Positions 1 through 39,736 of a stretch of 39,736 nt of DNA are shown piece after piece. The notes below the pieces were generated by a model. That model was not told the origin of the DNA and searched no databases. It worked only from the letters and a program-made list of their open reading frames with translations. How positions within the stretch are numbered: the stretch's first letter is position 1; the number at the start of each line of letters is the position of its first letter. Source of the stretch: a phage; the sequence record PZ379179.1. The stretch is one strand, 5' to 3'. Made by a program: the position numbers and the translations under genes.

Positions 1-161
1 CCTCAAGTCTCCCCATAGGCCCTCTTTAAGTCAAGACCAAAGGCCCTACCCATAGACCTTCGGTCTAAACTTCAGGTCATTGACTCAAGGTTGACCAAAA
101 GTCATGACGATAGGTCTAGGCTATGGCTTAGGGAAGGACGATAGGTAGGGACTATTGGTCT
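1..161. repeat. Left direct terminal repeat (161 bp)
   Basis: Bases 1-161 are identical to 39576-39736 (CCTCAAGTCTCCCCATAGG...GGGACTATTGGTCT); T7-like genomes carry ~160-bp direct terminal repeats. Confidence 0.9.
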
Positions 162-164
162 GTC

Positions 165-340
165 TTTGAGTCTCTATCTGTATAACCATAAGTCACAACC
201 ATAGGTCACAGCCTACCTCTCACAACCATAAGTCATAACCTACAGTCTCACTAACCTACAGTCTCAACCATAAGACACCAACACCTACAGTCATAGACCT
301 ACAGTTAATAGACACAAGGCTATAGACTTAAGGTCTAAGA
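165..340. repeat. Array of short degenerate direct repeats inside the left end
   Basis: Reiterated units such as AACCATAAGTCA and CCTACAGTC (e.g. 195-310); no coding signal. Comparable to T7 end-proximal short repeats. Confidence 0.5.
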
Positions 341-556
341 CATGTTAGTCAAAGACTATATCCTCTTACACCATGGGGCCGACGATAGCTTAATCAATAT
401 TATTTCGAATTACCTATTGACTATAGGTCCAGACTATGGCCTAATAGCTTCCGTCAACACGACACGGCAACAACCGGATAGTGAAGACGCCGGTCCGGTC
501 CGGTTAAGTAGTCAGCCTGTAAGACATACGAACAACAGGCAACCGACAGAAAGTAG

Positions 557-586
557 TTGACAGGCAGTAACGACTTAAAGTAATAT
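557..586 (+). promoter_or_regulatory. Candidate host sigma70 early promoter (A1-like)
   Basis: TTGACA (557-562), 18-bp spacer, TAATAT (581-586); lies upstream of the first early gene, where T7 has its strong E. coli promoters. Confidence 0.45.
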
Positions 587-736
587 GTACCACATCGAAA
601 CAACGGTGATGACCAACACTGAATGGTCTACCTGAAGTCCTCTGACTGAAGGGAATGCTCTTTAACAATCTGGATAAACTCTTAATGTGCGCCGATAGCG
701 ACTAACTACAGGGCCTTTGAGTCTACATCTGAAGGC

Positions 737-756
737 CCTGACTGATAGTCACTAAC
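737..756 (+). promoter_or_regulatory. Conserved early-region box CCTGACTGATAGTCACTAAC, copy 1
   Basis: 20-nt box also at 1054-1073 and 1782-1801, each preceded by ACTACAGG and 8-29 nt upstream of an early gene start; candidate RNase III processing or regulatory site. Confidence 0.35.
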
Positions 757-772
757 TTAAAGGATGGACACT

Positions 773-1018
773 ATGAAACACTTAAGCACAATCACTAATC
801 GCAATGAAGTATTCGTGAACACTAAAGGTTATGCGTGGATTCAGCTTAAAGAGGTGACAGGAGCGCGTCACCGTGTGGTAGTGCGCAAGGTATCAAGCAA
901 GCAGTTCAGCAACTACAGCGTCGATACTGTGCGTATAGACAACGAGACATACCTGATAGACTCGCAGATAACCGTGAGTCCTACAGTGGGCGTCTCAGCT
1001 CCTTATTTCGCTAACTGA
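773..1018 (+). CDS. Hypothetical early protein, first gene of the genome (81 aa)
   Basis: Track ORF 764..1018; the AGGA overlaps the ATG at 764, so the ATG at 773 (8 nt downstream) is the better start. No recognisable domain. Confidence 0.55.
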   Translation: MKHLSTITNRNEVFVNTKGYAWIQLKEVTGARHRVVVRKVSSKQFSNYSVDTVRIDNETYLIDSQITVSPTVGVSAPYFAN

Positions 1019-1053
1019 GAGTGATTAACTACAGGTCGTTAGACTGATAGCGG

Positions 1054-1073
1054 CCTGACTGATAGTCACTAAC
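1054..1073 (+). promoter_or_regulatory. Conserved early-region box, copy 2
   Basis: Identical 20-mer CCTGACTGATAGTCACTAAC, 29 nt upstream of the Ocr-like gene start. Confidence 0.35.
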
Positions 1074-1101
1074 ACATACTTAACTTTGAGAGGATATAAC
1101 T

Positions 1102-1605
1102 ATGGAACGTAATGCTAACGCATTCTATGAGCTGCTGGCTGCAACCGTTGAGGCATTTATCGAGCGTATTCAGTACGACCACCTGACTCAAGATGACGAC
1201 TACAGCGCTGCGCTGCATGAGGTCGTAGACGGTCAGGTTCCACACTATTACCACGAGATTTTTACGGTGATGGCTGCTGATGGTATAGACAACGAGTTCG
1301 AAGACTCTGGGATGATACCTGAAACCAAGGACGTAACGCGTATCCTACAAGCTCGCATCTATGAGGCACTTTATAACGACGTGTCTAATAGCTTGGATGT
1401 AGTCTGGTTTGAGGATGAAGAGGCAGACGAAGAGGATGAATATTGGGTAGTTGACGCTAAAACAGGCGCAATAATTGTGCAAGCTGTAGCTCTTGAGGTC
1501 GCTACTGCATGTGCCAAGGTCAACTATGTGATAGGTCGCCACCTTCAGGTGGAAGACATCAATGATAACGTAGTGTTTGACCCTGCTGCTGAGGACTGCG
1601 AGTGA
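1102..1605 (+). CDS. ocr: Ocr-like anti-restriction DNA-mimic protein (T7 gp0.3 homolog) with C-terminal extension
   Basis: 167 aa; [43 protein letters not shown] matches recalled T7 Ocr ([43 protein letters not shown]). Acidic run [10 protein letters not shown], then ~50 extra residues absent from the 117-aa T7 protein. GAGAGGA RBS 7 nt upstream. Confidence 0.85.
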   Translation: [167 protein letters not shown]

Positions 1606-1781
1606 TGGTAACTTATGGCCTCTGCCAGCACCACGTCACTAACGCCCGGCTTATGGTCAAGACCGGGCAGTTAGACCACGATTGGGCTATGCGTCTCTTG
1701 AAAGTGGTCTACAGGAGACGCAAGCGTATACACGACAGTTTACACGCTAAGTGACAGACTACAGGTCATCAATGCTGGTGG

Positions 1782-1801
1782 CCTGACTGATAGTCATTAA
1801 C
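1782..1801 (+). promoter_or_regulatory. Conserved early-region box, copy 3 (CCTGACTGATAGTCATTAAC)
   Basis: One mismatch to copies 1 and 2; 8 nt upstream of the ATG at 1809. Confidence 0.35.
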
Positions 1802-1808
1802 AACTGAG

Positions 1809-2045
1809 ATGGAAGATATGAACACAATCACTGGTGCCATAACCAAAGGTTTTCGAGCAATTTTCGGTGAAACGCAAGAAGTATGCACCAATCATAAATT
1901 CGTACTTTCTTGCGTAGCAGGTGACGAGTTTGACGGGTTCGATAAACTGGTGGTTTGCGACCATTGCGGACAAGAGGCTATCCAACACTCAAACGGTAAA
2001 TTTGAATTAATAGACGATAGCCTTACAGAAGGAGACGGCGAGTAA
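1809..2045 (+). CDS. Hypothetical early protein, Cys-containing (78 aa)
   Basis: Track ORF with ATG start; contains CDHCG and other Cys residues (possible metal site). Sits where T7 has genes 0.4-0.6; no similarity recognised. Confidence 0.5.
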   Translation: MEDMNTITGAITKGFRAIFGETQEVCTNHKFVLSCVAGDEFDGFDKLVVCDHCGQEAIQHSNGKFELIDDSLTEGDGE

Positions 2046-2177
2046 CCTAAATAAACAGGAGAGAACCAAATCATAGCTTGACCATAACACTGACGTGATG
2101 GTACTGAGTGATAGACGAGAGGTCATCGACTGATAGGTGGCCTCAAAGATTACCACTTACATTGATAGGATTTAACT

Positions 2178-2282
2178 ATGAGCACTGCAATCATCTGGAC
2201 TATCTCAGGCTTCGTAGCGTGGGGAATGTTTACTCTAGTCTGCAAACTACCGGTCCTTACTCAACTGTTATGGGGCTTATGA
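2178..2282 (+). CDS. Small hydrophobic peptide (34 aa), candidate membrane protein
   Basis: ATG at 2178 with TAGGA RBS 7 nt upstream; MSTAIIWTISGFVAWGMFTLVCKLPVLTQLLWGL is one predicted TM helix. Below the track size cut-off. Confidence 0.35.
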   Translation: MSTAIIWTISGFVAWGMFTLVCKLPVLTQLLWGL

Positions 2283-2482
2283 CTATGGGTCTTGCACTAT
2301 TGATAGCCATAGGCTATGGACTTATCGCCTACGTGCTGGTGAGAGACATCAACAAATCGCGTAAAGTCTACAAATTCAAATATGTACGTCTGGGTAGCTG
2401 GACTGTACGTCAACCTAACGGACGATTCATGCGTAACTTAGCGAACGTCTGGGATATAGCAACACTTGGGAGCAAACTGTAA
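2270..2482 (+). CDS. Small membrane protein (about 65-70 aa), start uncertain
   Basis: The track ORF 2108..2482 opens with GTG and no RBS. In-frame ATGs at 2270, 2279 and 2285 (the last is 3 nt after the stop of the 2178 ORF) precede a hydrophobic segment LALLIAIGYGLIAYVLV. Stop overlaps the next ATG. Confidence 0.35.
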   Translation: MGLMTMGLALLIAIGYGLIAYVLVRDINKSRKVYKFKYVRLGSWTVRQPNGRFMRNLANVWDIATLGSKL

Positions 2483-2808
2483 TGAACAAGTCATACGGGA
2501 TTAATCTGGTACACTCTATGGACGCAGACATGCAAATGTTAAGCCTACTGGCTACCGGGTATCGTCACGGAACGTCAAGTCACTCCGCACGTCAACAGCA
2601 GGAGCGGGACCGGGTACTGCAAGCAAGACTCCGGGCTGAGGGCCATAAGTCCGAACTAATGTGTCTGGCGTATGGTGGACGACCAATCACTGACGATGGT
2701 AAACTTTTAGTCTCAGGCTGGAAGGCGATAGACCAACGGTCAACCATCAAGCACACGACTCATGGTGACTTCAGTCATCTCCACGCTAACCCGCTGATAT
2801 GCAAGTAA
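2482..2808 (+). CDS. Hypothetical early protein (108 aa)
   Basis: ATG overlaps the upstream stop (TAATG), suggesting translational coupling. Last ORF before the RNA polymerase; no recognisable domain and no kinase motifs. Confidence 0.5.
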   Translation: MNKSYGINLVHSMDADMQMLSLLATGYRHGTSSHSARQQQERDRVLQARLRAEGHKSELMCLAYGGRPITDDGKLLVSGWKAIDQRSTIKHTTHGDFSHLHANPLICK

Positions 2809-2813
2809 TTCTG

Positions 2814-2836
2814 ACTTAACTATCACTATAGGACTC
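2814..2836 (+). promoter_or_regulatory. Phage RNAP promoter upstream of the RNAP gene
   Basis: TTAACTATCACTATAGGA matches the genome-wide promoter consensus; predicted +1 G at 2831. Followed by direct repeats AAGTGAAAGAC (x2) before the RNAP start. Confidence 0.6.
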
Positions 2837-2905
2837 AAGGTCTAAGACTCCAAGTGAAAGACCAAAGAGACTTTAAGTGAAAGACTAATAACAAGGACTT
2901 TAAGT

Positions 2906-5587
2906 ATGAGCGTCATCTCTATTGACAAGCACGACTTCTCTGATGTATCGAACGCCATTGAGCCGTTTAACCTACTGGCTGACCACTACGGGCAAGACCT
3001 TGCAGTCAAACAGCTTCAGCTTGAGCACGAGGCATACACTGAAGGCGAGCGACGTTTCATCAAGAACCTTGAGAGACAGACTGAGCGAGGGGAACTGGCA
3101 GACAATCAGGTCGCCAAGCCTTTGATGCAGACTCTGGTCCCTAAGATTGCGCAAGCCGTCAAGGAGTGGCATGAAGGTCCAGACGGGAAGCTGTCAACCT
3201 CTCGTCCGAGCGTAGCGTTCACCATGTTGAGCACTGAAGAGAAGGCCGTAAAGGTCCGCTCTTTGCGCATCTCCTGCGAGTCTGCTGCGGTTATCATACT
3301 GAAGGTCATACTCTCCAAGCTGGTCAAGCCTGAAGGGATACCGATTACACCGATGGCCTCAGCGATAGGTCGCACACTTGAGGACGAAATCCGCTTCGGT
3401 CGCATCCGTGACAAGGAGAAAGAGCACTTCAAGAAGGCGATAGCTGATAACCTGAATAAGCGGGCCGGGGCGTCCTACAAGAAAGCCTACATGCAAGCGG
3501 TCGAGGCATCCATGCTGGAGCAAGGCCAACTGGAAGATGCGTGGGGGACTTGGAGTCCGACCGAGGCTGTCCACGTTGGAATCAAGATGCTGGAGATTGT
3601 CATCCAGTCCACACAACTGGTCGAGCTTAAGCGTTACGGTGCTGGCAATGCAGCGGCTGACGTTGAGATGGTCCACCTGTCAGACTTCTGGGTCAAGAAG
3701 ATGGCACAACGAGGATTCAGCCTTGCGGGTATAGCTCCAGTCTACCAGCCTTGCGTCGTTCCACCTAAGCCGTGGACTGGTGTCGTAGGCGGTGGGTACT
3801 GGGCCAAAGGACGCAGACCATTACCACTGATTCGCTTAGGGTCTAAGTCTGCGGTAGCACGCTACGAAGACGTGTATATGCCTGAAGTCTATGACGCTGT
3901 GAACATCATTCAGAATACACCTTGGAAAGTGAACAAGAAGGTTCTGGAAGTGGTGAACATGGTCGAGAAGCTGAACAACACGCCTATTGATGACATCCCT
4001 CAGATGGAACCGCTGAAGCCTGAGGACTATGCGGGTGAGACTGAAGAAGAACTCAAGGCATGGAAGAAGGCTGCTGCTGGTATCTATCGCCGCGAGAAGG
4101 CCAGACAGTCACGAAGATTGTCACTGAGCTTTATCGTCAACCAAGCGAACAAGTTCTCTCAGTTCAAGGCCATCTGGTTCCCGTATAACATGGACTGGCG
4201 CGGTCGCGTCTACGCTGTGCCGATGTTCAACCCTCAGGGTAACGACATGCAAAAGGGTCTTCTGACTCTGGCAGTCGGTAAGCCTATTGGTGCTGATGGT
4301 TTCAAATGGCTGAAGGTCCACGGTGCAAACTGCGCGGGTGTCGATAAAGTCACCTTCGAGGAGCGTATCAAGTGGGTGGAAGATAACCACGAAAACATCA
4401 TGGCTGCTGCCAAGGCACCGATGGATAGCATTGAGTGGTGGGGCAAGTTAGACTCTCCGTTCTGCTTCCTAGCGTTCTGCTTCGAGTATGCTGGCGTAAT
4501 GCACCACGGCTTGTCTTACTCCTGCTCGCTGCCGATAGCGTTCGATGGGTCCTGCTCTGGGATTCAGCACTTCAGCGCTATGCTTCGCGACCACATCGGT
4601 GGACATGCAGTAAACCTGACGCCATCCGGTAAGGTACAAGACATCTACCGAATTGTGTCTGACCGCATTGAGGAGCAGCTTAAAGTCCTGCTGATTAACG
4701 GTACTGACAACGAGATGGTCACTCACGAGGATAAGAAAACTGGTGAGATTACCGAACGTATCAAGCTGGGGACACGAGAGCTGGCCCGTCAGTGGCTGAC
4801 ATACGGTATGTCACGCAAGGTCACTAAGCGTTCAGTCATGACTCTGGCATACGGGTCGAAAGAGTACGGCTTCGCAGACCAAGTTTACGAGGACATCGTG
4901 ATGCCAGCGATTGACTCAGGGTATGGCGCTATGTTCACCGAGCCAAGCCAAGCGTCTCGATTCATGGCTAAGATGATTTGGGAAGCTGTGAGTGTGACCG
5001 TAGTTGCTGCGGTTGACGCGATGAAGTGGCTTCAAGGTGCTGCCAAGCTGCTGGCTGCTGAAGTGAAGGACAAGAAGACTGGCGAAATCCTGAAGCCATG
5101 CCTTCCGGTACACTGGGTAACACCTGATGGTTTCCCTGTCTGGCAGGAATACCGCAAGAAGGATACCACTCGTCTGAACCTGATGTTCTTAGGGTCATTC
5201 AACCTTCAGCCTACAGTCAACAAAGGAACGAAGAAAGAGCTTGACAAGCACAAGCAGGAGTCAGGCATTAGCCCTAACTTCGTCCACTCACAAGATGGTA
5301 GCCACCTGCGGAAGACTGTAGTCCACACTCACCGCAAGTATGGCGTGATGTCATTCGCAGTGATTCACGATAGCTTCGGGACCATCCCTGCTGACGCTGA
5401 GTATCTGTTCCGTGGTGTCCGTGAGACGATGGTCGAGACATACCGCGATAATGATGTGCTGCTTGACTTCTACGAGCAGTTCGAATACCAGCTTCATGAA
5501 AGTCAGCGCGACAAGTTGCCTGAGCTTCCGAAGAAAGGTAAACTGAATATCGAAGACATCTTGTCTTCAGACTTTGCATTCGCTTAA
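2906..5587 (+). CDS. Single-subunit DNA-directed RNA polymerase (T7 gene 1 homolog)
   Basis: 893 aa; collinear with recalled T7 RNAP, including AFDGSCSGIQHFSAMLRD, VIHDSFGTIPAD and the C-terminal DFAFA. AAGGA RBS 8 nt upstream. Confidence 0.97.
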   Translation: MSVISIDKHDFSDVSNAIEPFNLLADHYGQDLAVKQLQLEHEAYTEGERRFIKNLERQTERGELADNQVAKPLMQTLVPKIAQAVKEWHEGPDGKLSTSRPSVAFTMLSTEEKAVKVRSLRISCESAAVIILKVILSKLVKPEGIPITPMASAIGRTLEDEIRFGRIRDKEKEHFKKAIADNLNKRAGASYKKAYMQAVEASMLEQGQLEDAWGTWSPTEAVHVGIKMLEIVIQSTQLVELKRYGAGNAAADVEMVHLSDFWVKKMAQRGFSLAGIAPVYQPCVVPPKPWTGVVGGGYWAKGRRPLPLIRLGSKSAVARYEDVYMPEVYDAVNIIQNTPWKVNKKVLEVVNMVEKLNNTPIDDIPQMEPLKPEDYAGETEEELKAWKKAAAGIYRREKARQSRRLSLSFIVNQANKFSQFKAIWFPYNMDWRGRVYAVPMFNPQGNDMQKGLLTLAVGKPIGADGFKWLKVHGANCAGVDKVTFEERIKWVEDNHENIMAAAKAPMDSIEWWGKLDSPFCFLAFCFEYAGVMHHGLSYSCSLPIAFDGSCSGIQHFSAMLRDHIGGHAVNLTPSGKVQDIYRIVSDRIEEQLKVLLINGTDNEMVTHEDKKTGEITERIKLGTRELARQWLTYGMSRKVTKRSVMTLAYGSKEYGFADQVYEDIVMPAIDSGYGAMFTEPSQASRFMAKMIWEAVSVTVVAAVDAMKWLQGAAKLLAAEVKDKKTGEILKPCLPVHWVTPDGFPVWQEYRKKDTTRLNLMFLGSFNLQPTVNKGTKKELDKHKQESGISPNFVHSQDGSHLRKTVVHTHRKYGVMSFAVIHDSFGTIPADAEYLFRGVRETMVETYRDNDVLLDFYEQFEYQLHESQRDKLPELPKKGKLNIEDILSSDFAFA

Positions 5588-5602
5588 CAGGAGGAGAAGT
5601 AT

Positions 5603-5833
5603 ATGTCAATGAAACTTGTAGCACACAACAGGACATACAACGATGGGTCGGGACGTTGCCACGTAGAGCTGACTTATAAGGATTTAATCATTCTCCGAGA
5701 CAGATTACAGTCGGGTGTGACTGGGTGGATTCAACCTAACGAGTACAACCTTATAGCTTCGATTGATGAAGTTCTTAACGCGTGGATGGAAGACGAGCGC
5801 ATTCAGTATCCGTCATTCCCTCTAATTAGATAA
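5603..5833 (+). CDS. Hypothetical protein downstream of RNAP (76 aa)
   Basis: ATG with GGAGGAG RBS; no T7 counterpart at this position that I recognise. Confidence 0.55.
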   Translation: MSMKLVAHNRTYNDGSGRCHVELTYKDLIILRDRLQSGVTGWIQPNEYNLIASIDEVLNAWMEDERIQYPSFPLIR

Positions 5834-5843
5834 GGAGAGAGTT

Positions 5844-6059
5844 ATGAAATTTGCACACAAGCATACTGGCGTTAATGGTGGGACTCAAATCGTGACCGTA
5901 ACAGAACACAACGGCAAGGGTCTGGTGAAGACCACGGTCATCCCTACCGAGATGTCCAAGCAGCTTAACATCCCGTTCAAGACTCTTGTATATCTGGTCG
6001 AGTCCAGCCACGAGAAGTACCTGAAGGACGCAGTGTCCAAGCTGGAGCAGGCCAAATGA
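5844..6059 (+). CDS. Hypothetical protein (71 aa)
   Basis: ATG with AAGGAGA RBS; phage-typical codon usage. Confidence 0.55.
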   Translation: MKFAHKHTGVNGGTQIVTVTEHNGKGLVKTTVIPTEMSKQLNIPFKTLVYLVESSHEKYLKDAVSKLEQAK

Positions 6060-6124
6060 CAGACATACAGTTACTGGCCCTGTGGCTGGGAGCACTCGCA
6101 GTATTCACTTTAATCCAACGCAGA

Positions 6125-6147
6125 AGAGGTTAACCCTAAACTATCAC
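6125..6147 (+). promoter_or_regulatory. Phage RNAP promoter (phi1.1-like)
   Basis: CCTAAACTATCACTATAGGA; predicted +1 G at 6142. Confidence 0.7.
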
Positions 6148-6200
6148 TATAGGATTAGACTCAAGGTCATGACTCAAAGTCGTGGCCTTCATGATTAACC
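6144..6200 (+). ncRNA. Candidate RNase III processing hairpin (R1.1-like)
   Basis: GATTAGACTCAAGGTCATGACTCAAAGTCGTGGCCTTCATGATTAACC; related copies at 13375-13417 and 36131-36171. Resembles the T7 R1.1 site as I recall it (ACTCAAGGTCATTCGCAAGAGTGGCCTTTATGATTGACC). Confidence 0.45.
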
Positions 6201-6230
6201 CTAAATAAACACTACTGGAGATTTAACCGT

Positions 6231-6410
6231 ATGTATCAGAACACTATCAACTTCGAGCGCATCCGCGAACGTCAGCAGACTGAAGGTTACATCCCTAAGG
6301 GCCGCAAGCTGAACAAGACTAAACGTGGAGGAGGTATCAAAGGTGCTTTCCGTAACGCTGAAGGTAAAGACTCTATGGTTAACCAAGAGAAATACTTCGT
6401 AGGAGCATAA
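6231..6410 (+). CDS. Gene 1.1-like small basic protein (59 aa)
   Basis: GRKLNKTKR matches recalled T7 gp1.1; below the track size cut-off, found by manual translation. Confidence 0.65.
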   Translation: MYQNTINFERIRERQQTEGYIPKGRKLNKTKRGGGIKGAFRNAEGKDSMVNQEKYFVGA

Positions 6411-6414
6411 CCAA

Positions 6415-6678
6415 ATGGGCCGACTTTATAGTGGCAACCTCAACGATTTCAAAGCAGCGTGTCACAGGCTTTATCAGTTAGACTTCGCTGTCATATCTCA
6501 GGAGTTTCAAGACTATACGTCACGCCAAGAGTGTATGAAACTCAGGGTGGAGGACCGAGCTGGTAACATCTTCGCGCTTGAGACCTTCGCACACTACGAT
6601 GAAGACGTGCTGTATAATACCGCAACCGACTACCTCAACGGTCTCGCTGACCATCTCGACACATGGAGAAAAGAATAA
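6415..6678 (+). CDS. Gene 1.2-like inhibitor of host dGTPase (87 aa)
   Basis: MGRLYSGNLNDFKAA...LRVEDRAGN...HYDEDVLYN closely matches recalled T7 gp1.2 (MGRLYSGNLAAFKAA...LRIEDRSGN...HHDEDVLFN). AGGAG RBS. Confidence 0.85.
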   Translation: MGRLYSGNLNDFKAACHRLYQLDFAVISQEFQDYTSRQECMKLRVEDRAGNIFALETFAHYDEDVLYNTATDYLNGLADHLDTWRKE

Positions 6679-7706
6679 TGACAACTATCAAAACTAACCC
6701 TCACCGCGCTGTAGATTACTCTGAGTCTGGAATTAAGAAGGCACTGGAAGCAGCCGGGTCTCTGGAAGCTGAAGTGAAGTACGATGGTGTGCGCCTGAAC
6801 CTCCTGGTCCTGCGTGAAGGTGAGACCTACTGGCTTAGCCGCGAGTCGAAACCTCTACCAGCCTTGGAGTGGATGAACTCTGAGTTAGGTAATGCGTGGA
6901 CCCAAGCTGACTGGCGATGGTTCCTGCGTCAATCCGGCTACGAAGGTGTGGGCATGATGATTGATGGCGAGGTCATGGTCAAAGGTGTAGACTTCAACAC
7001 CTCCTCAGGTCTCATCCGAACGAAGTGGCTCAAGCCTAACAACGAGGAGTTCGCTGAATACTATTCGCCGGCGACTGGTGGAAAGAAGCTCCCGTTCTGG
7101 GGATCCCGGTCACGACTTCAGGTTGTGGTCTACGGTGTCATTGACATGACAACCATTGCTGACCCGAAAGCCGAAGGTCCTATCCATAGCGTAACCCGCC
7201 TGAAGGCCGAAGCTATCGTCCCTCTTCTCCAGAAATACTTCCCGGAAATCGACTGGGTTCTGTCTGAGAGTCATACAGTGTTCAACCTTGAGTCTCTTCG
7301 TGATTTGTACGAGGAGAAGCGAGCAGATGGACATGAAGGTCTGGTAGTCAAGGACCCACTGGGCAAATACAAGCGTGGTAAGAAGTCTGGTATGTGGAAG
7401 ATGAAGCCGAGTGAAGAGGCAGATGGTCACGTTGTTCGCCCGGTGTGGGGAACAGAAGGCCTAGCCAACGAAGGCATGGTCATCGGCTTTGACGTTATGC
7501 TCGAGAACGGGATGGAGGTCTCCGCAACTAACATTAGTCGCGCCCTTATGTCCGAGTTCACGGAGAACGTTAAGTCAGACCCTGACTACTACAAAGGGTG
7601 GGCTTGCCAGATTACCTACATGGAGGAGACACCAGATGGCTCATTGCGACACCCCTCGTTCTACCAGTGGCGTGGAACTGAGGATAATCCTACAGTCAAG
7701 ATTTAA
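6678..7706 (+). CDS. ATP-dependent DNA ligase (T7 gene 1.3 homolog)
   Basis: Adenylation motif KYDGVR; MTTIKTNP...SYWLSRESK...HEGLVVKDP...KRGKKSGMWKMKP...WACQITYMEETPDGSLRHPSF collinear with T7 ligase. Track ORF begins at 6663; the ATG at 6678 overlaps the gene 1.2 stop. Confidence 0.93.
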   Translation: MTTIKTNPHRAVDYSESGIKKALEAAGSLEAEVKYDGVRLNLLVLREGETYWLSRESKPLPALEWMNSELGNAWTQADWRWFLRQSGYEGVGMMIDGEVMVKGVDFNTSSGLIRTKWLKPNNEEFAEYYSPATGGKKLPFWGSRSRLQVVVYGVIDMTTIADPKAEGPIHSVTRLKAEAIVPLLQKYFPEIDWVLSESHTVFNLESLRDLYEEKRADGHEGLVVKDPLGKYKRGKKSGMWKMKPSEEADGHVVRPVWGTEGLANEGMVIGFDVMLENGMEVSATNISRALMSEFTENVKSDPDYYKGWACQITYMEETPDGSLRHPSFYQWRGTEDNPTVKI

Positions 7707-8819: not shown

Positions 8820-8901
8820 GTGGTGTGAAATGATGTTCGAGAAGACAGGTAACACTGACTACCTTGAATTGTATAACCAGTGGAAGGAGCGCGGTTTATG
8901 A
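8806..8901 (+). CDS. Small ORF (31 aa), gene 1.8 position
   Basis: ATG 8806, stop overlapping the gp2 start; [31 protein letters not shown]. Short and without homology support. Confidence 0.3.
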
Positions 8902-9056
8902 CTGAGGTTGAGAAGAAATACATCGTGGAGCTTGAGGGTCGCGTTCAGTCCTTCGAGGTTCCGTTGTACGCAAAGTCTCTTGAAGAGGCTACCCTGAAGT
9001 CCCAAGAGTATGAGGACGCTGGGTTTGTGGTCGGACGGATTCGCCCTGAGACCTAA
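8898..9056 (+). CDS. Gp2-like inhibitor of host RNA polymerase (52 aa)
   Basis: [14 protein letters not shown]...[10 protein letters not shown] matches recalled T7 Gp2 (SFEVPIYAETLDEA...AGFEVTRVRP). Below the track size cut-off. Confidence 0.8.
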
Positions 9057-10261: not shown

Positions 10262-10485
10262 TGACTCAAGAATTTAAGGTCGTTCGTAAGCGTCTGACCA
10301 TTGATAAAATCCCGGTAGGCTATGCGTTTATCGTCCACGGTAAGCCGGGTGAAGTGTACGTGAAGATTAGTAACTCTCACGTCTTCAACCATAAGTTGCT
10401 CCAGATGCACACCACGGATGCTAACCGCTTCCAACGTCATCTGAACCTCGTAGCTGTAGAGCTGGTGGTGTACGATGGTGAGTAA
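10261..10485 (+). CDS. Hypothetical protein (74 aa) between endonuclease I and lysozyme
   Basis: ATG at 10261 overlaps the upstream stop (TGATG), with AGGAG 7 nt upstream; the track ORF opens at GTG 10258. No T7 gene occupies this position. Confidence 0.5.
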   Translation: MTQEFKVVRKRLTIDKIPVGYAFIVHGKPGEVYVKISNSHVFNHKLLQMHTTDANRFQRHLNLVAVELVVYDGE

Positions 10486-10933
10486 GGTTCAGTTCAACCC
10501 ACGGTCCCTGACTGACGCTATCTTCGTTCACTGTAGCGCAACCAAGCCAGAGATGGACATCGGGGTAGAGACCATCCGTATGTGGCACAAGCAGCAAGGC
10601 TGGCTGGATGTAGGCTACCACTTTATCATCAAGCGTGACGGTACTGTGGAAGAGGGTCGCCCGGTCAATGTCGTAGGGTCACACGTTAAGGACTGGAACT
10701 CCAAGTCCGTAGGCGTCTGCCTTGTAGGTGGCATCAACGCTAAGGGTCAGTTTGAAGCTAACTTCACTCCAGCCCAGATGAACTCCCTGCGCAACAAGCT
10801 GGCTGACCTGAAGGTCCTGTATCCTCAGGCAGAAATCAAAGCACACCATGACGTAGCACCTAAGGCGTGTCCAAGTTTTGACTTGCGATGGTGGCTAGAT
10901 ACCAATGAACTGGTAACTTCCGACCGTGGTTAA
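10475..10933 (+). CDS. Lysozyme / N-acetylmuramoyl-L-alanine amidase (T7 gene 3.5 homolog)
   Basis: 152 aa; DAIFVHCSATKP...WLDVGYHFIIKRDGTVEEGR...GVCLVGG...APKACPSFDL...ELVTSDRG matches T7 lysozyme. Confidence 0.95.
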   Translation: MVSKVQFNPRSLTDAIFVHCSATKPEMDIGVETIRMWHKQQGWLDVGYHFIIKRDGTVEEGRPVNVVGSHVKDWNSKSVGVCLVGGINAKGQFEANFTPAQMNSLRNKLADLKVLYPQAEIKAHHDVAPKACPSFDLRWWLDTNELVTSDRG

Positions 10934-11228: not shown

Positions 11229-11426
11229 ATGACCACTATTACAAAAGAGCGACTACTGACAATCAAGCAGTGGCGCGAAACATACGGACATGGTAGCAAC
11301 GTTGTACTGCCAGCAGAAGAAGCGGAAGAACTGGAACGAATTGCACTTGCGTCACTGGAAGCTGGCATGAAGGCACGTCAAGCTGACACCAAAGCTGACC
11401 AGTTGGCTCAGTTCTTCAAAGCCTAA
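11229..11426 (+). CDS. Hypothetical accessory protein (65 aa)
   Basis: ATG with AAGGA RBS 8 nt upstream; the stop codon is part of the following promoter. No recognisable domain. Confidence 0.55.
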   Translation: MTTITKERLLTIKQWRETYGHGSNVVLPAEEAEELERIALASLEAGMKARQADTKADQLAQFFKA

Positions 11427-11444
11427 ACTATCACCTTAGGGATT
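11422..11444 (+). promoter_or_regulatory. Phage RNAP promoter, variant (CACCTTAGGG)
   Basis: CCTAAACTATCACCTTAGGGATT; upstream of the primase-helicase gene. Confidence 0.5.
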
Positions 11445-11491: not shown

Positions 11492-13195
<1,704 letters not shown>

Positions 13196-17422: not shown

Positions 17423-17483
17423 TTAGGACCTAAGATATGACTATAAGATAGACTTTAGTCTTAACTTAAAGAGGAGATTCAAG

Positions 17484-38984: not shown

Positions 38985-39163
38985 ACCCCCGGTTACTTAT
39001 AGTATTACTATAGTGAATATACATATGCAGACTTTATGCAAGACCTTAGGAGGCAGACTCCGAGTTCTTACCTAAGGCTTGCACCGATGGGAGGAGGTGA
39101 TATTAATCATAATACCTCCAATACAGATAGTCACAGACCATAGATACAGGAGGTATGTAGCAT

Positions 39164-39575: not shown

Positions 39576-39736
39576 CCTCAAGTCTCCCCATAGGCCCTCT
39601 TTAAGTCAAGACCAAAGGCCCTACCCATAGACCTTCGGTCTAAACTTCAGGTCATTGACTCAAGGTTGACCAAAAGTCATGACGATAGGTCTAGGCTATG
39701 GCTTAGGGAAGGACGATAGGTAGGGACTATTGGTCT
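39576..39736. repeat. Right direct terminal repeat (161 bp)
   Basis: Identical to bases 1-161. Confidence 0.9.

Follow-up and report, generated by a model that had tools for sequence, protein, structure and literature searches.

A cognate promoter and an AT-rich leader before the RNA polymerase gene of a K1F-like phage

According to the textbook picture of T7, the gene for the phage RNA polymerase (RNAP), gene 1, is transcribed only by the host enzyme, and polymerase synthesis stops at host shut-off. In the phage genome analysed here, a sequence resembling a promoter for the phage's own RNAP lies immediately upstream of gene 1 and is followed by short direct repeats. Two questions are raised by this locus: whether the polymerase may transcribe its own gene, and what role may be served by the repeats and the leader that contains them.

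The window, which is the whole 39,736-nt stretch of DNA that was analysed, holds an entire phage genome; its ends, positions 1–161 and 39576–39736, form a direct terminal repeat of 161 bp without mismatches. The tested region is 99.6–99.8% identical to Escherichia phages vB_EcoP-U8 and LM33_P1, and the phage is a member of the genus Kayfunavirus (K1F-like, Studiervirinae). The features considered below are collected in Table 1.

Table 1. Features of the window at and around the region preceding gene 1.
Feature	Position (nt)	Strand	Remarks
ocr homologue	1102–1605		
Final early ORF ahead of gene 1 (108 aa)	2482–2808	+	position of K1F gene 0.38; without Pfam match
Phage RNAP promoter, −17 to +6, ACTTAACTATCACTATAGGACTC (23 bp)	2814–2836	+	+1 = G2831
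Leader, 75 nt	2831–2905	+	37% G+C vs 50% for the genome
GACTCAAGGTC word	2832–2842	+	over-represented in the genome
Direct repeat AAGTGAAAGAC	copy 1, 2852–2862; copy 2, 2875–2885	+	
GACCA (bottom strand TGGTC, T7-type primase recognition word)	2859–2863	+	at +29
Direct repeat GACTTTAAGT	copy 1, 2869–2878; copy 2, 2896–2905	+	copy 1 contains ACTTTAAG
Translation initiation region AAGGACTTTAAGTATG	2893–2908	+	15 of 16 nt (AGGACTTTAAGTATG) identical to the T7 gene 1.1 initiation region
Gene 1, single-subunit RNA polymerase, 893 aa	2906–5587	+	PF00940 (E = 1.8e-106), PF14700; ORF intact
Next phage promoter, with R1.1-like hairpin	6135–6157 (with hairpin, 6135–6200)	+	matches T7 phi1.1A/R1.1
Decayed promoter-like word CCTAAATAAACACTACTGGA	6200–6219	+	15/20; where T7 has phi1.1B, before the gene 1.1 homologue
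Gene 1.1 homologue	6231–6410	+	
gp2-like inhibitor of host RNA polymerase	8880–9056	+	
T7-lysozyme-like amidase	10475–10933	+	

The promoter and its surroundings

The promoter is located in a 97-nt intergenic gap that follows the last early ORF, and its shorter form, TTAACTATCACTATAGGA, spans positions 2816–2833. With the start site assigned by analogy with T7, the distance from the end of the promoter to the ATG of gene 1 is 69 nt; the sequence across the promoter and leader reads ...gacTTAACTATCACTATAGGActcaaggtctaagactccAAGTGAAAGACcaaagaGACTTTAAGTGAAAGACtaataacaagGACTTTAAGTatg. A search of the genome for the promoter pattern with up to three mismatches identified 10 sites, all on the plus strand and none on the minus strand, where 0.03 would be expected. 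When scored with a leave-one-out weight matrix, the copy before gene 1 reached 31.3 bits compared to 29.1–36.2 bits for the other nine. It has the full consensus, including the core CACTATAGG with the +1 G. All four left-hand promoters, this one among them, begin with GGA, while GGG is found in four of the six late promoters. An earlier note on this DNA, made from the sequence alone, had described a consensus phage promoter upstream of the RNAP start, and that description is borne out, with +1 located 75 nt before the ATG.

The same note had taken T7 to lack a cognate promoter directly before gene 1. The T7 record agrees, since it lists none between phiOL (405) and phi1.1A (5848) and places only the E. 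coli C promoter (3113) just before gene 1. The phiOL promoter lies upstream of the entire early region, however, and thus leaves T7 with some route by which its polymerase could transcribe its own gene. In positions 1–2813 of the window no phage promoter was identified, including any of the phiOL type at the left end, so that no phage promoter of the genome lies further left than the one preceding gene 1.

Two further kinds of promoter-like sequence were observed. At 11422–11441, just upstream of a primase/helicase-sized ORF at 11495, CCTAAACTATCACCTTAGGG matches the consensus at 17 of 20 positions and may be an eleventh, variant promoter that falls outside the three-mismatch search. Degenerate second promoter-like words also occur 30–65 nt downstream of real promoters, at 6200–6219 (15/20), 17429–17448 (16/20) and 38996–39015 (14/20).

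None of the small ORFs neighbouring the promoter has a Pfam match, and no ORF the size of the 0.7-type kinase was seen in the early region of the window, unlike the Dev2 and CR8 records, in which a kinase is annotated. On the plus strand, no host-type promoter overlaps the region before gene 1, and no terminator-like site was found from 1 to 7240, a span that covers the path from the left-end host promoter candidates to gene 1. The layout is thus that of an autogene, in which a cognate promoter stands upstream of an intact polymerase gene with no terminator-like site between them. As an aside on annotation, several RefSeq records (NC_031937, NC_007636, NC_048023 and others) label the T7-type single-subunit polymerase as an "N4-like RNA polymerase", which looks like a misnomer.

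Conservation among relatives and the case for auto-amplification

From IMG/VR, 80 loci with a polymerase were recovered, and the upstream region was examined in about 57 of these together with a few reference phages. A promoter is present 75–105 nt before gene 1 in every examined IMG/VR or GenBank relative with an RNAP at least 79% identical. The promoter is found in all of the Kayfunavirus and Caroctavirus relatives examined, Dev2 and CR8 among them, and in K1F the same 95 bp are found with one difference.

Three lineages can be told apart by their promoter specificity bases (−8 to −12), and the residues of the polymerase specificity loop differ together with them. The K1F type has the bases ACTATCAC in the promoter word (A/T)AACTATCACTATAGG and the loop RLNLMFLGSFNLQ (RLNL..FNLQ). 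In loci L017 and L041, the bases are CCCTCAC, the promoter word is TTAAACCCTCACTATAGG and the loop is RLDLMFLGTFRLQ (RLDL..FRLQ; N748D, as in T3). In L015 and CR8, the corresponding elements are GGTACAC, AAGGAAGGTACACTATAGG and RIKLMFMG-VQYR (RIKL..QYR). Within each lineage, the copy before gene 1 and the other promoters examined carry the same specificity bases. Since the copies carry each lineage's own bases, the promoter before gene 1 does not appear to be inert.

Nucleotide diversity was compared over 18 distinct K1F-type sequences. The promoter has a value of 0.005 (0.0046) and the leader one of 0.017, while the initiation region does not vary (0); the third-codon-position values are 0.10 in gene 1 and 0.20 in the upstream ORF. 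The promoter is therefore some 20-fold less diverse than neighbouring synonymous sites and the leader some 6-fold less diverse than the synonymous sites of gene 1. Judged by these values, the whole leader shows purifying selection in the K1F-type lineage, and because it is strongly conserved throughout, it has a function beyond that of the promoter. In the Dev2-type lineage (L013, 2910–2974; also L011, L012, L019, L020 and L086, the last being Cronobacter phage Dev2), only the promoter before gene 1 has an A at −2 (CACTAAAGG), suggesting that it may be kept weak. In this type, the promoter core also recurs 43 nt downstream as a perfect inverted repeat of 11 nt (TATCACTAAAG / CTTTAGTGATA).

Taken together, the element is probably a working class-II-type promoter for the phage's own RNAP, fused to a conserved AT-rich leader and a ribosome binding site that serve gene 1. 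Host RNA polymerase would start at the early left-end promoters and read through to gene 1, and it can make the first polymerase mRNA because no terminator-like site precedes the gene. The first polymerase molecules would then use the promoter, start at G2831 and transcribe their own gene, resulting in auto-amplification. Since a gp2-like inhibitor is encoded, such a loop would keep gene 1 expressed after the host polymerase has been silenced, unlike in T7. The T7 class II promoters are damped later in infection with the involvement of T7 lysozyme, the natural inhibitor of T7 RNAP. By analogy with these GGA-start promoters, the loop would probably be damped later by the lysozyme-like inhibitor. 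Initiation at 2831, feedback, damping and the role of the repeats are the inferred steps of this scheme. Self-transcription, which the earlier note had proposed, remains the natural reading because the promoter is real and cognate, is conserved with lineage-specific bases and is separated from gene 1 by no terminator-like site; the companion proposal, that the repeats bind a regulator, fared less well and is taken up below.

In none of 53 T7-, T3- and K11-like loci does a promoter-length word occur both within the 250 nt preceding gene 1 and in the region downstream. A promoter upstream of the RNAP gene is likewise absent from SP6, Dickeya phage Ninurta and Pectobacterium phage PPWS4. In place of a promoter, the T7- and K11-like loci and most T3-like ones have a hairpin-forming sequence before gene 1.

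The arrangement has nonetheless been annotated or proposed before. The record of CR8, from the sister genus Caroctavirus, has a "predicted promoter" at 3356–3378 before gene 1 that is the same element, with a leader that also contains repeated A(G)ACTT(T)AAG words. CR8 differs in its specificity bases and ribosome site and has a longer leader; the record discusses no function. In Pseudomonas phage LUZ100, the phi1 promoter was mapped directly upstream of the RNAP gene by ONT-cappable-seq; host read-through is considered the source of the first RNAP, and a positive feedback loop is proposed to follow (PMC10134795). The cognate promoter is placed as in the window phage; however, LUZ100 is distant and temperate-like, and a MarR-type repressor is proposed to gate its promoter, while the window shows no repressor or operator-like sites. 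In Vibrio phage phiA318, the predicted promoter phi-A8 upstream of the RNAP gene was interpreted as autoregulation (PMC4099482). This is a prediction only, and the phiA318 promoter precedes both a kinase and the RNAP gene in an SP6/K1E-like genome. Auto-amplification has been documented in engineered T7 with gene 1 behind a T7 promoter (PMC3737178), and autogene systems in which the gene for RNAP lies downstream of its own promoter have been constructed (PMC6395690, PMC1500874). In contrast to these artificial systems, the arrangement in the window is natural and evolutionarily maintained. With CR8 annotated and phiA318 and LUZ100 proposed, the window provides a further natural example.

Two other observations bear on the distribution of such loci. 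Aeromonas phage PZL-Ah8 (L090, 7084–7252; unclassified Studiervirinae) has a cognate promoter 169 nt before its RNAP gene, followed by four tandem ACACTAAGATAA repeats and the AT-rich palindrome GTGATTATGATTATTATAATCAC; it is an independent case of a promoter and repeats before a polymerase gene. A Kayfunavirus genome note lists 18-bp repeats, one of which is at the 3' end of SPD_007, the tag just before the RNAP gene SPD_008. A literature search identified no transcriptome study of a Kayfunavirus.

In contrast to T7, a whole sister genus, with the therapeutic phages K1F and LM33_P1 among its members, keeps a cognate promoter on gene 1. A natural autogene would serve as a natural test of the predictions about auto-amplification that were made from engineered T7 genomes. 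It would also be of relevance to infection-timing models, to K1F-based expression circuits and to the engineering of these phages.

The leader and its likeness to the T7 phi1.1B origin

The leader is composed of five to six degenerate tandem units of the form A(G)GACTnnAAGTGAA, which run AGGACTCAAGGTCTA, AGACTCCAAGTGAA, AGACCAAAGAG, AGACTTTAAGTGAA, AGACTAATAACA and AGGACTTTAAGTATG. The first unit overlaps the start site, and the last comprises the Shine-Dalgarno sequence, the spacer and the ATG. The two pairs of direct repeats that the earlier note had pointed out were found as described, and they are parts of larger imperfect units of 14–23 nt, such as AGACTCCAAGTGAAAGACCAA and AGACTTTAAGTGAAAGACTAA, which are 86% identical. 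They are not due to chance: when the leader was shuffled 5000 times with its dinucleotides preserved, an exact direct repeat of at least 11 nt arose in five cases, and the seven repeated 8-mers observed (mean of 0.15 in the shuffles) were reached in none.

The leader was compared with T7 5923–6009, which extends from the +1 of phi1.1B to the ATG of gene 1.1. Over its whole length, from +1 up to the ATG, it can be aligned with this T7 region at a global score of 24 compared to −8.8 ± 4.1 for shuffled sequences (0 of 2000). When the final 18 nt with the ribosome site are left out, the score is 8 compared to −9.0 ± 3.8 (0 of 3000). In a whole-genome blastn comparison, the leader of the window and this T7 region are reciprocal best matches (37/45 identities, E = 7e-5). 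Of the T7 promoters, only two match TCACTATAGGA, and phi1.1B is one of them. Both modules have a GGA-start promoter and an AT-rich leader of 75–84 nt made of C(T)TTAAG-type words that ends in AGGACTTTAAGTATG. By comparison, gene 1 of T7 and K11 has a different ribosome site (AGAGGCAC...). A scan of a viral collection for AGGACTTTAAGTATG returned mostly unrelated contigs.

There are also differences. The T7 module follows gene 1, where it serves genes 1.1 and 1.2 as well as replication, while that of the window precedes gene 1; the promoter specificity bases are not the same, and the two leaders have diverged in their middle part. At the position that phi1.1B occupies in T7, the window has only the word at 6200–6219, and this placement suggests a decayed tandem promoter. 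From these comparisons, a phi1.1B-type module of promoter, leader and initiation region stands before gene 1 in this lineage. The likeness of the pre-gene-1 module to the T7 origin and gene 1.1 leader is what this analysis adds.

In T7, replication starts at phi1.1A and phi1.1B, which are the primary origins (PMC8373140), and an A/T-rich cluster with a GGGTC site belongs to the primary origin (PMC12839067). The match fits a role at the DNA level equally well, and it raises a reading that may be entertained tentatively, namely that the module is mainly a replication origin in which promoter transcripts prime DNA synthesis within the AT-rich repeats, with transcription of gene 1 as a by-product. 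Such a reading is compatible with the autogene. Besides the reciprocal match to the phi1.1B leader, the presence of only a decayed promoter-like word at the T7 phi1.1B position and the selection acting on the whole leader are consistent with it. The order of elements in a T7-type origin, a promoter and then an AT-rich region, is present, and the leader lies within the most AT-rich 0.6% of 60-nt windows. However, other promoter leaders of the genome (at 21290, 17423, 6191 and 9081) are as AT-rich or more so, and AT-richness was rejected as a marker of an origin on account of this lack of specificity. The GACCA word parallels the GACCC at +26 of phi1.1B, which is weak evidence only; the word is too short to be meaningful, and the primase word in the T7 AT-rich cluster is reported to be unused for priming (PMC12839067), so it too was set aside. 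Finally, any T7 phage promoter can act as a secondary origin, and thus similarity alone assigns no primacy to this one.

A more elaborate version of this idea, in which the T7 primary-origin module (phi1.1B and its AT-rich leader) has been moved before gene 1 in Kayfunavirus and Caroctavirus, would have a single 95-bp element both start replication and drive RNAP auto-amplification. The A(G)GACTnnAAGTGAA repeats would then mark the zone of the switch from RNA priming to DNA synthesis or the site of a factor. This proposal is doubtful. If it were true, polymerase dosage would be coupled to origin firing. In any event, the match to the T7 origin leader provides a concrete candidate origin for the genus.

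Hairpin and operator readings of the repeats

At the corresponding place in T7, after the last early gene and ahead of gene 1, there is a hairpin-forming sequence, presumably the R1 RNase III site, and a related word containing AGGTC forms its 5' arm (T7 ACAGGTCA). A further reading is that the region of the window is chiefly an equivalent RNase III-type hairpin in the early read-through RNA, in which the promoter core (CACUAUAGG) and GACUCAAGGUC would pair with GACC..GAG..CUUUAAGUG downstream. This is rather improbable. In its favor, T7-, K11- and most T3-like phages have a hairpin-forming sequence at this point, the GACTCAAGGTC word is the 5' arm of RNase III-type hairpins both in T7 and after other promoters of the window, an irregular hairpin of 19 bp, alike in kind, is predicted for the read-through RNA of three Kayfunavirus lineages, and the promoter core of the Dev2 type is matched by the perfect 11-nt inverted repeat noted above. 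The T7 hairpin is a clean one; its 3' arm is GGCCTG, and it lacks a phage promoter. A T7-type RNase III site is an irregular hairpin of ~20 bp with arms (A)CTCAAGGTC ... GGCCTT(T/C)ATGA; in the window, the 5' arm is present at 2832–2842, but the canonical GGCCTT 3' arm is missing and AGACCAAAGAG is found in its place. The fold z-scores are only −1.1 to −1.5, with the hairpin at the R1 position of T7 itself at −1.6, and none of the single-sequence folds differed significantly from shuffles. An RNAalifold analysis of 11 variants revealed no compensatory changes; the pairing it chose was a different one, weak and invariant, which joins +3..+12 to the spacer preceding the ATG (−4.1 kcal/mol). A search of Rfam produced no match. 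Moreover, the leader as initiated by the phage polymerase is unstructured on its own (z = +0.28).

The earlier note had also suggested that the repeats could bind a regulator, either a phage or a host protein acting on the promoter or on translation of gene 1. It is very unlikely that they do. The repeats are non-random and the leader varies far less than the synonymous sites of gene 1, a runaway autogene would plausibly need a brake, and the unrelated Aeromonas phage described above also has repeats between a cognate promoter and its RNAP gene. Nevertheless, inverted repeats or dyad symmetry were looked for in the leader of the window and none were found. Nor did a candidate for a DNA-binding protein emerge; the small ORFs nearby are without Pfam matches. 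The copies diverge independently between lineages and are not kept as matched pairs: L017 has CAGTTAAAGAC and GACTCTAAGT, while in the Dev2 type one AAGTGAAAGAC is kept and the middle of the leader is reshaped. Only +1..+12 and the initiation region are invariant. The sole invariant repeat, the second copy of GACTTTAAGT, serves as the spacer that separates the Shine-Dalgarno sequence from the ATG, and it is unchanged in all Kayfunavirus-type relatives. The same words occur in the T7 phi1.1B leader, for which no regulator is known. An array of operators or iterons is thus not what was found; the repeat pairs belong to a degenerate tandem array, and the high conservation within the lineage is equally expected of an RNA leader.

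Operator sites are therefore unlikely. The most likely way for the repeats to act would be as part of the leader, which provides the mRNA with an AT-rich 5' end that has little structure and carries ACUUUAAG words, and perhaps also through the DNA as an origin-like region. The ACUUUAAG word occurs five times in the genome where 1.1 would be expected, and it resembles the "epsilon" translational enhancer of T7 gene 10. That the promoter-like sequence and repeats are a chance occurrence or a relic, as the decayed words at 6200 and 17429 might invite one to think, is extremely improbable and already contradicted by the comparative data, since the copy before gene 1 has the full consensus, is conserved in three lineages of different promoter specificity and is some 20-fold less diverse than the synonymous sites nearby.

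Two observations on repeated words extend beyond this locus. At up to one mismatch, GACTCAAGGT is found at 29 sites in the genome, 11 of them exact, compared to an expectation of 3.9 ± 1.9. The sites lie on both strands and often inside genes; examples are 82, 2832, 6158, 7285 (minus), 11447 (minus), 13377, 20920 (minus), 21256, 36135 and 39657. Those that follow promoters are the 5' arms of T7-type RNase III hairpins. In the K11-like loci (L046, L049, L051 and others), the ribosome site of gene 1, AAAGAGGCACAC (−13), recurs at the first gene after gene 1 (+88). Ahead of that gene stand a promoter and a leader in which the word ACTTAAAG appears three times. It thus seems that modules of the initiation region are shared or exchanged around gene 1.
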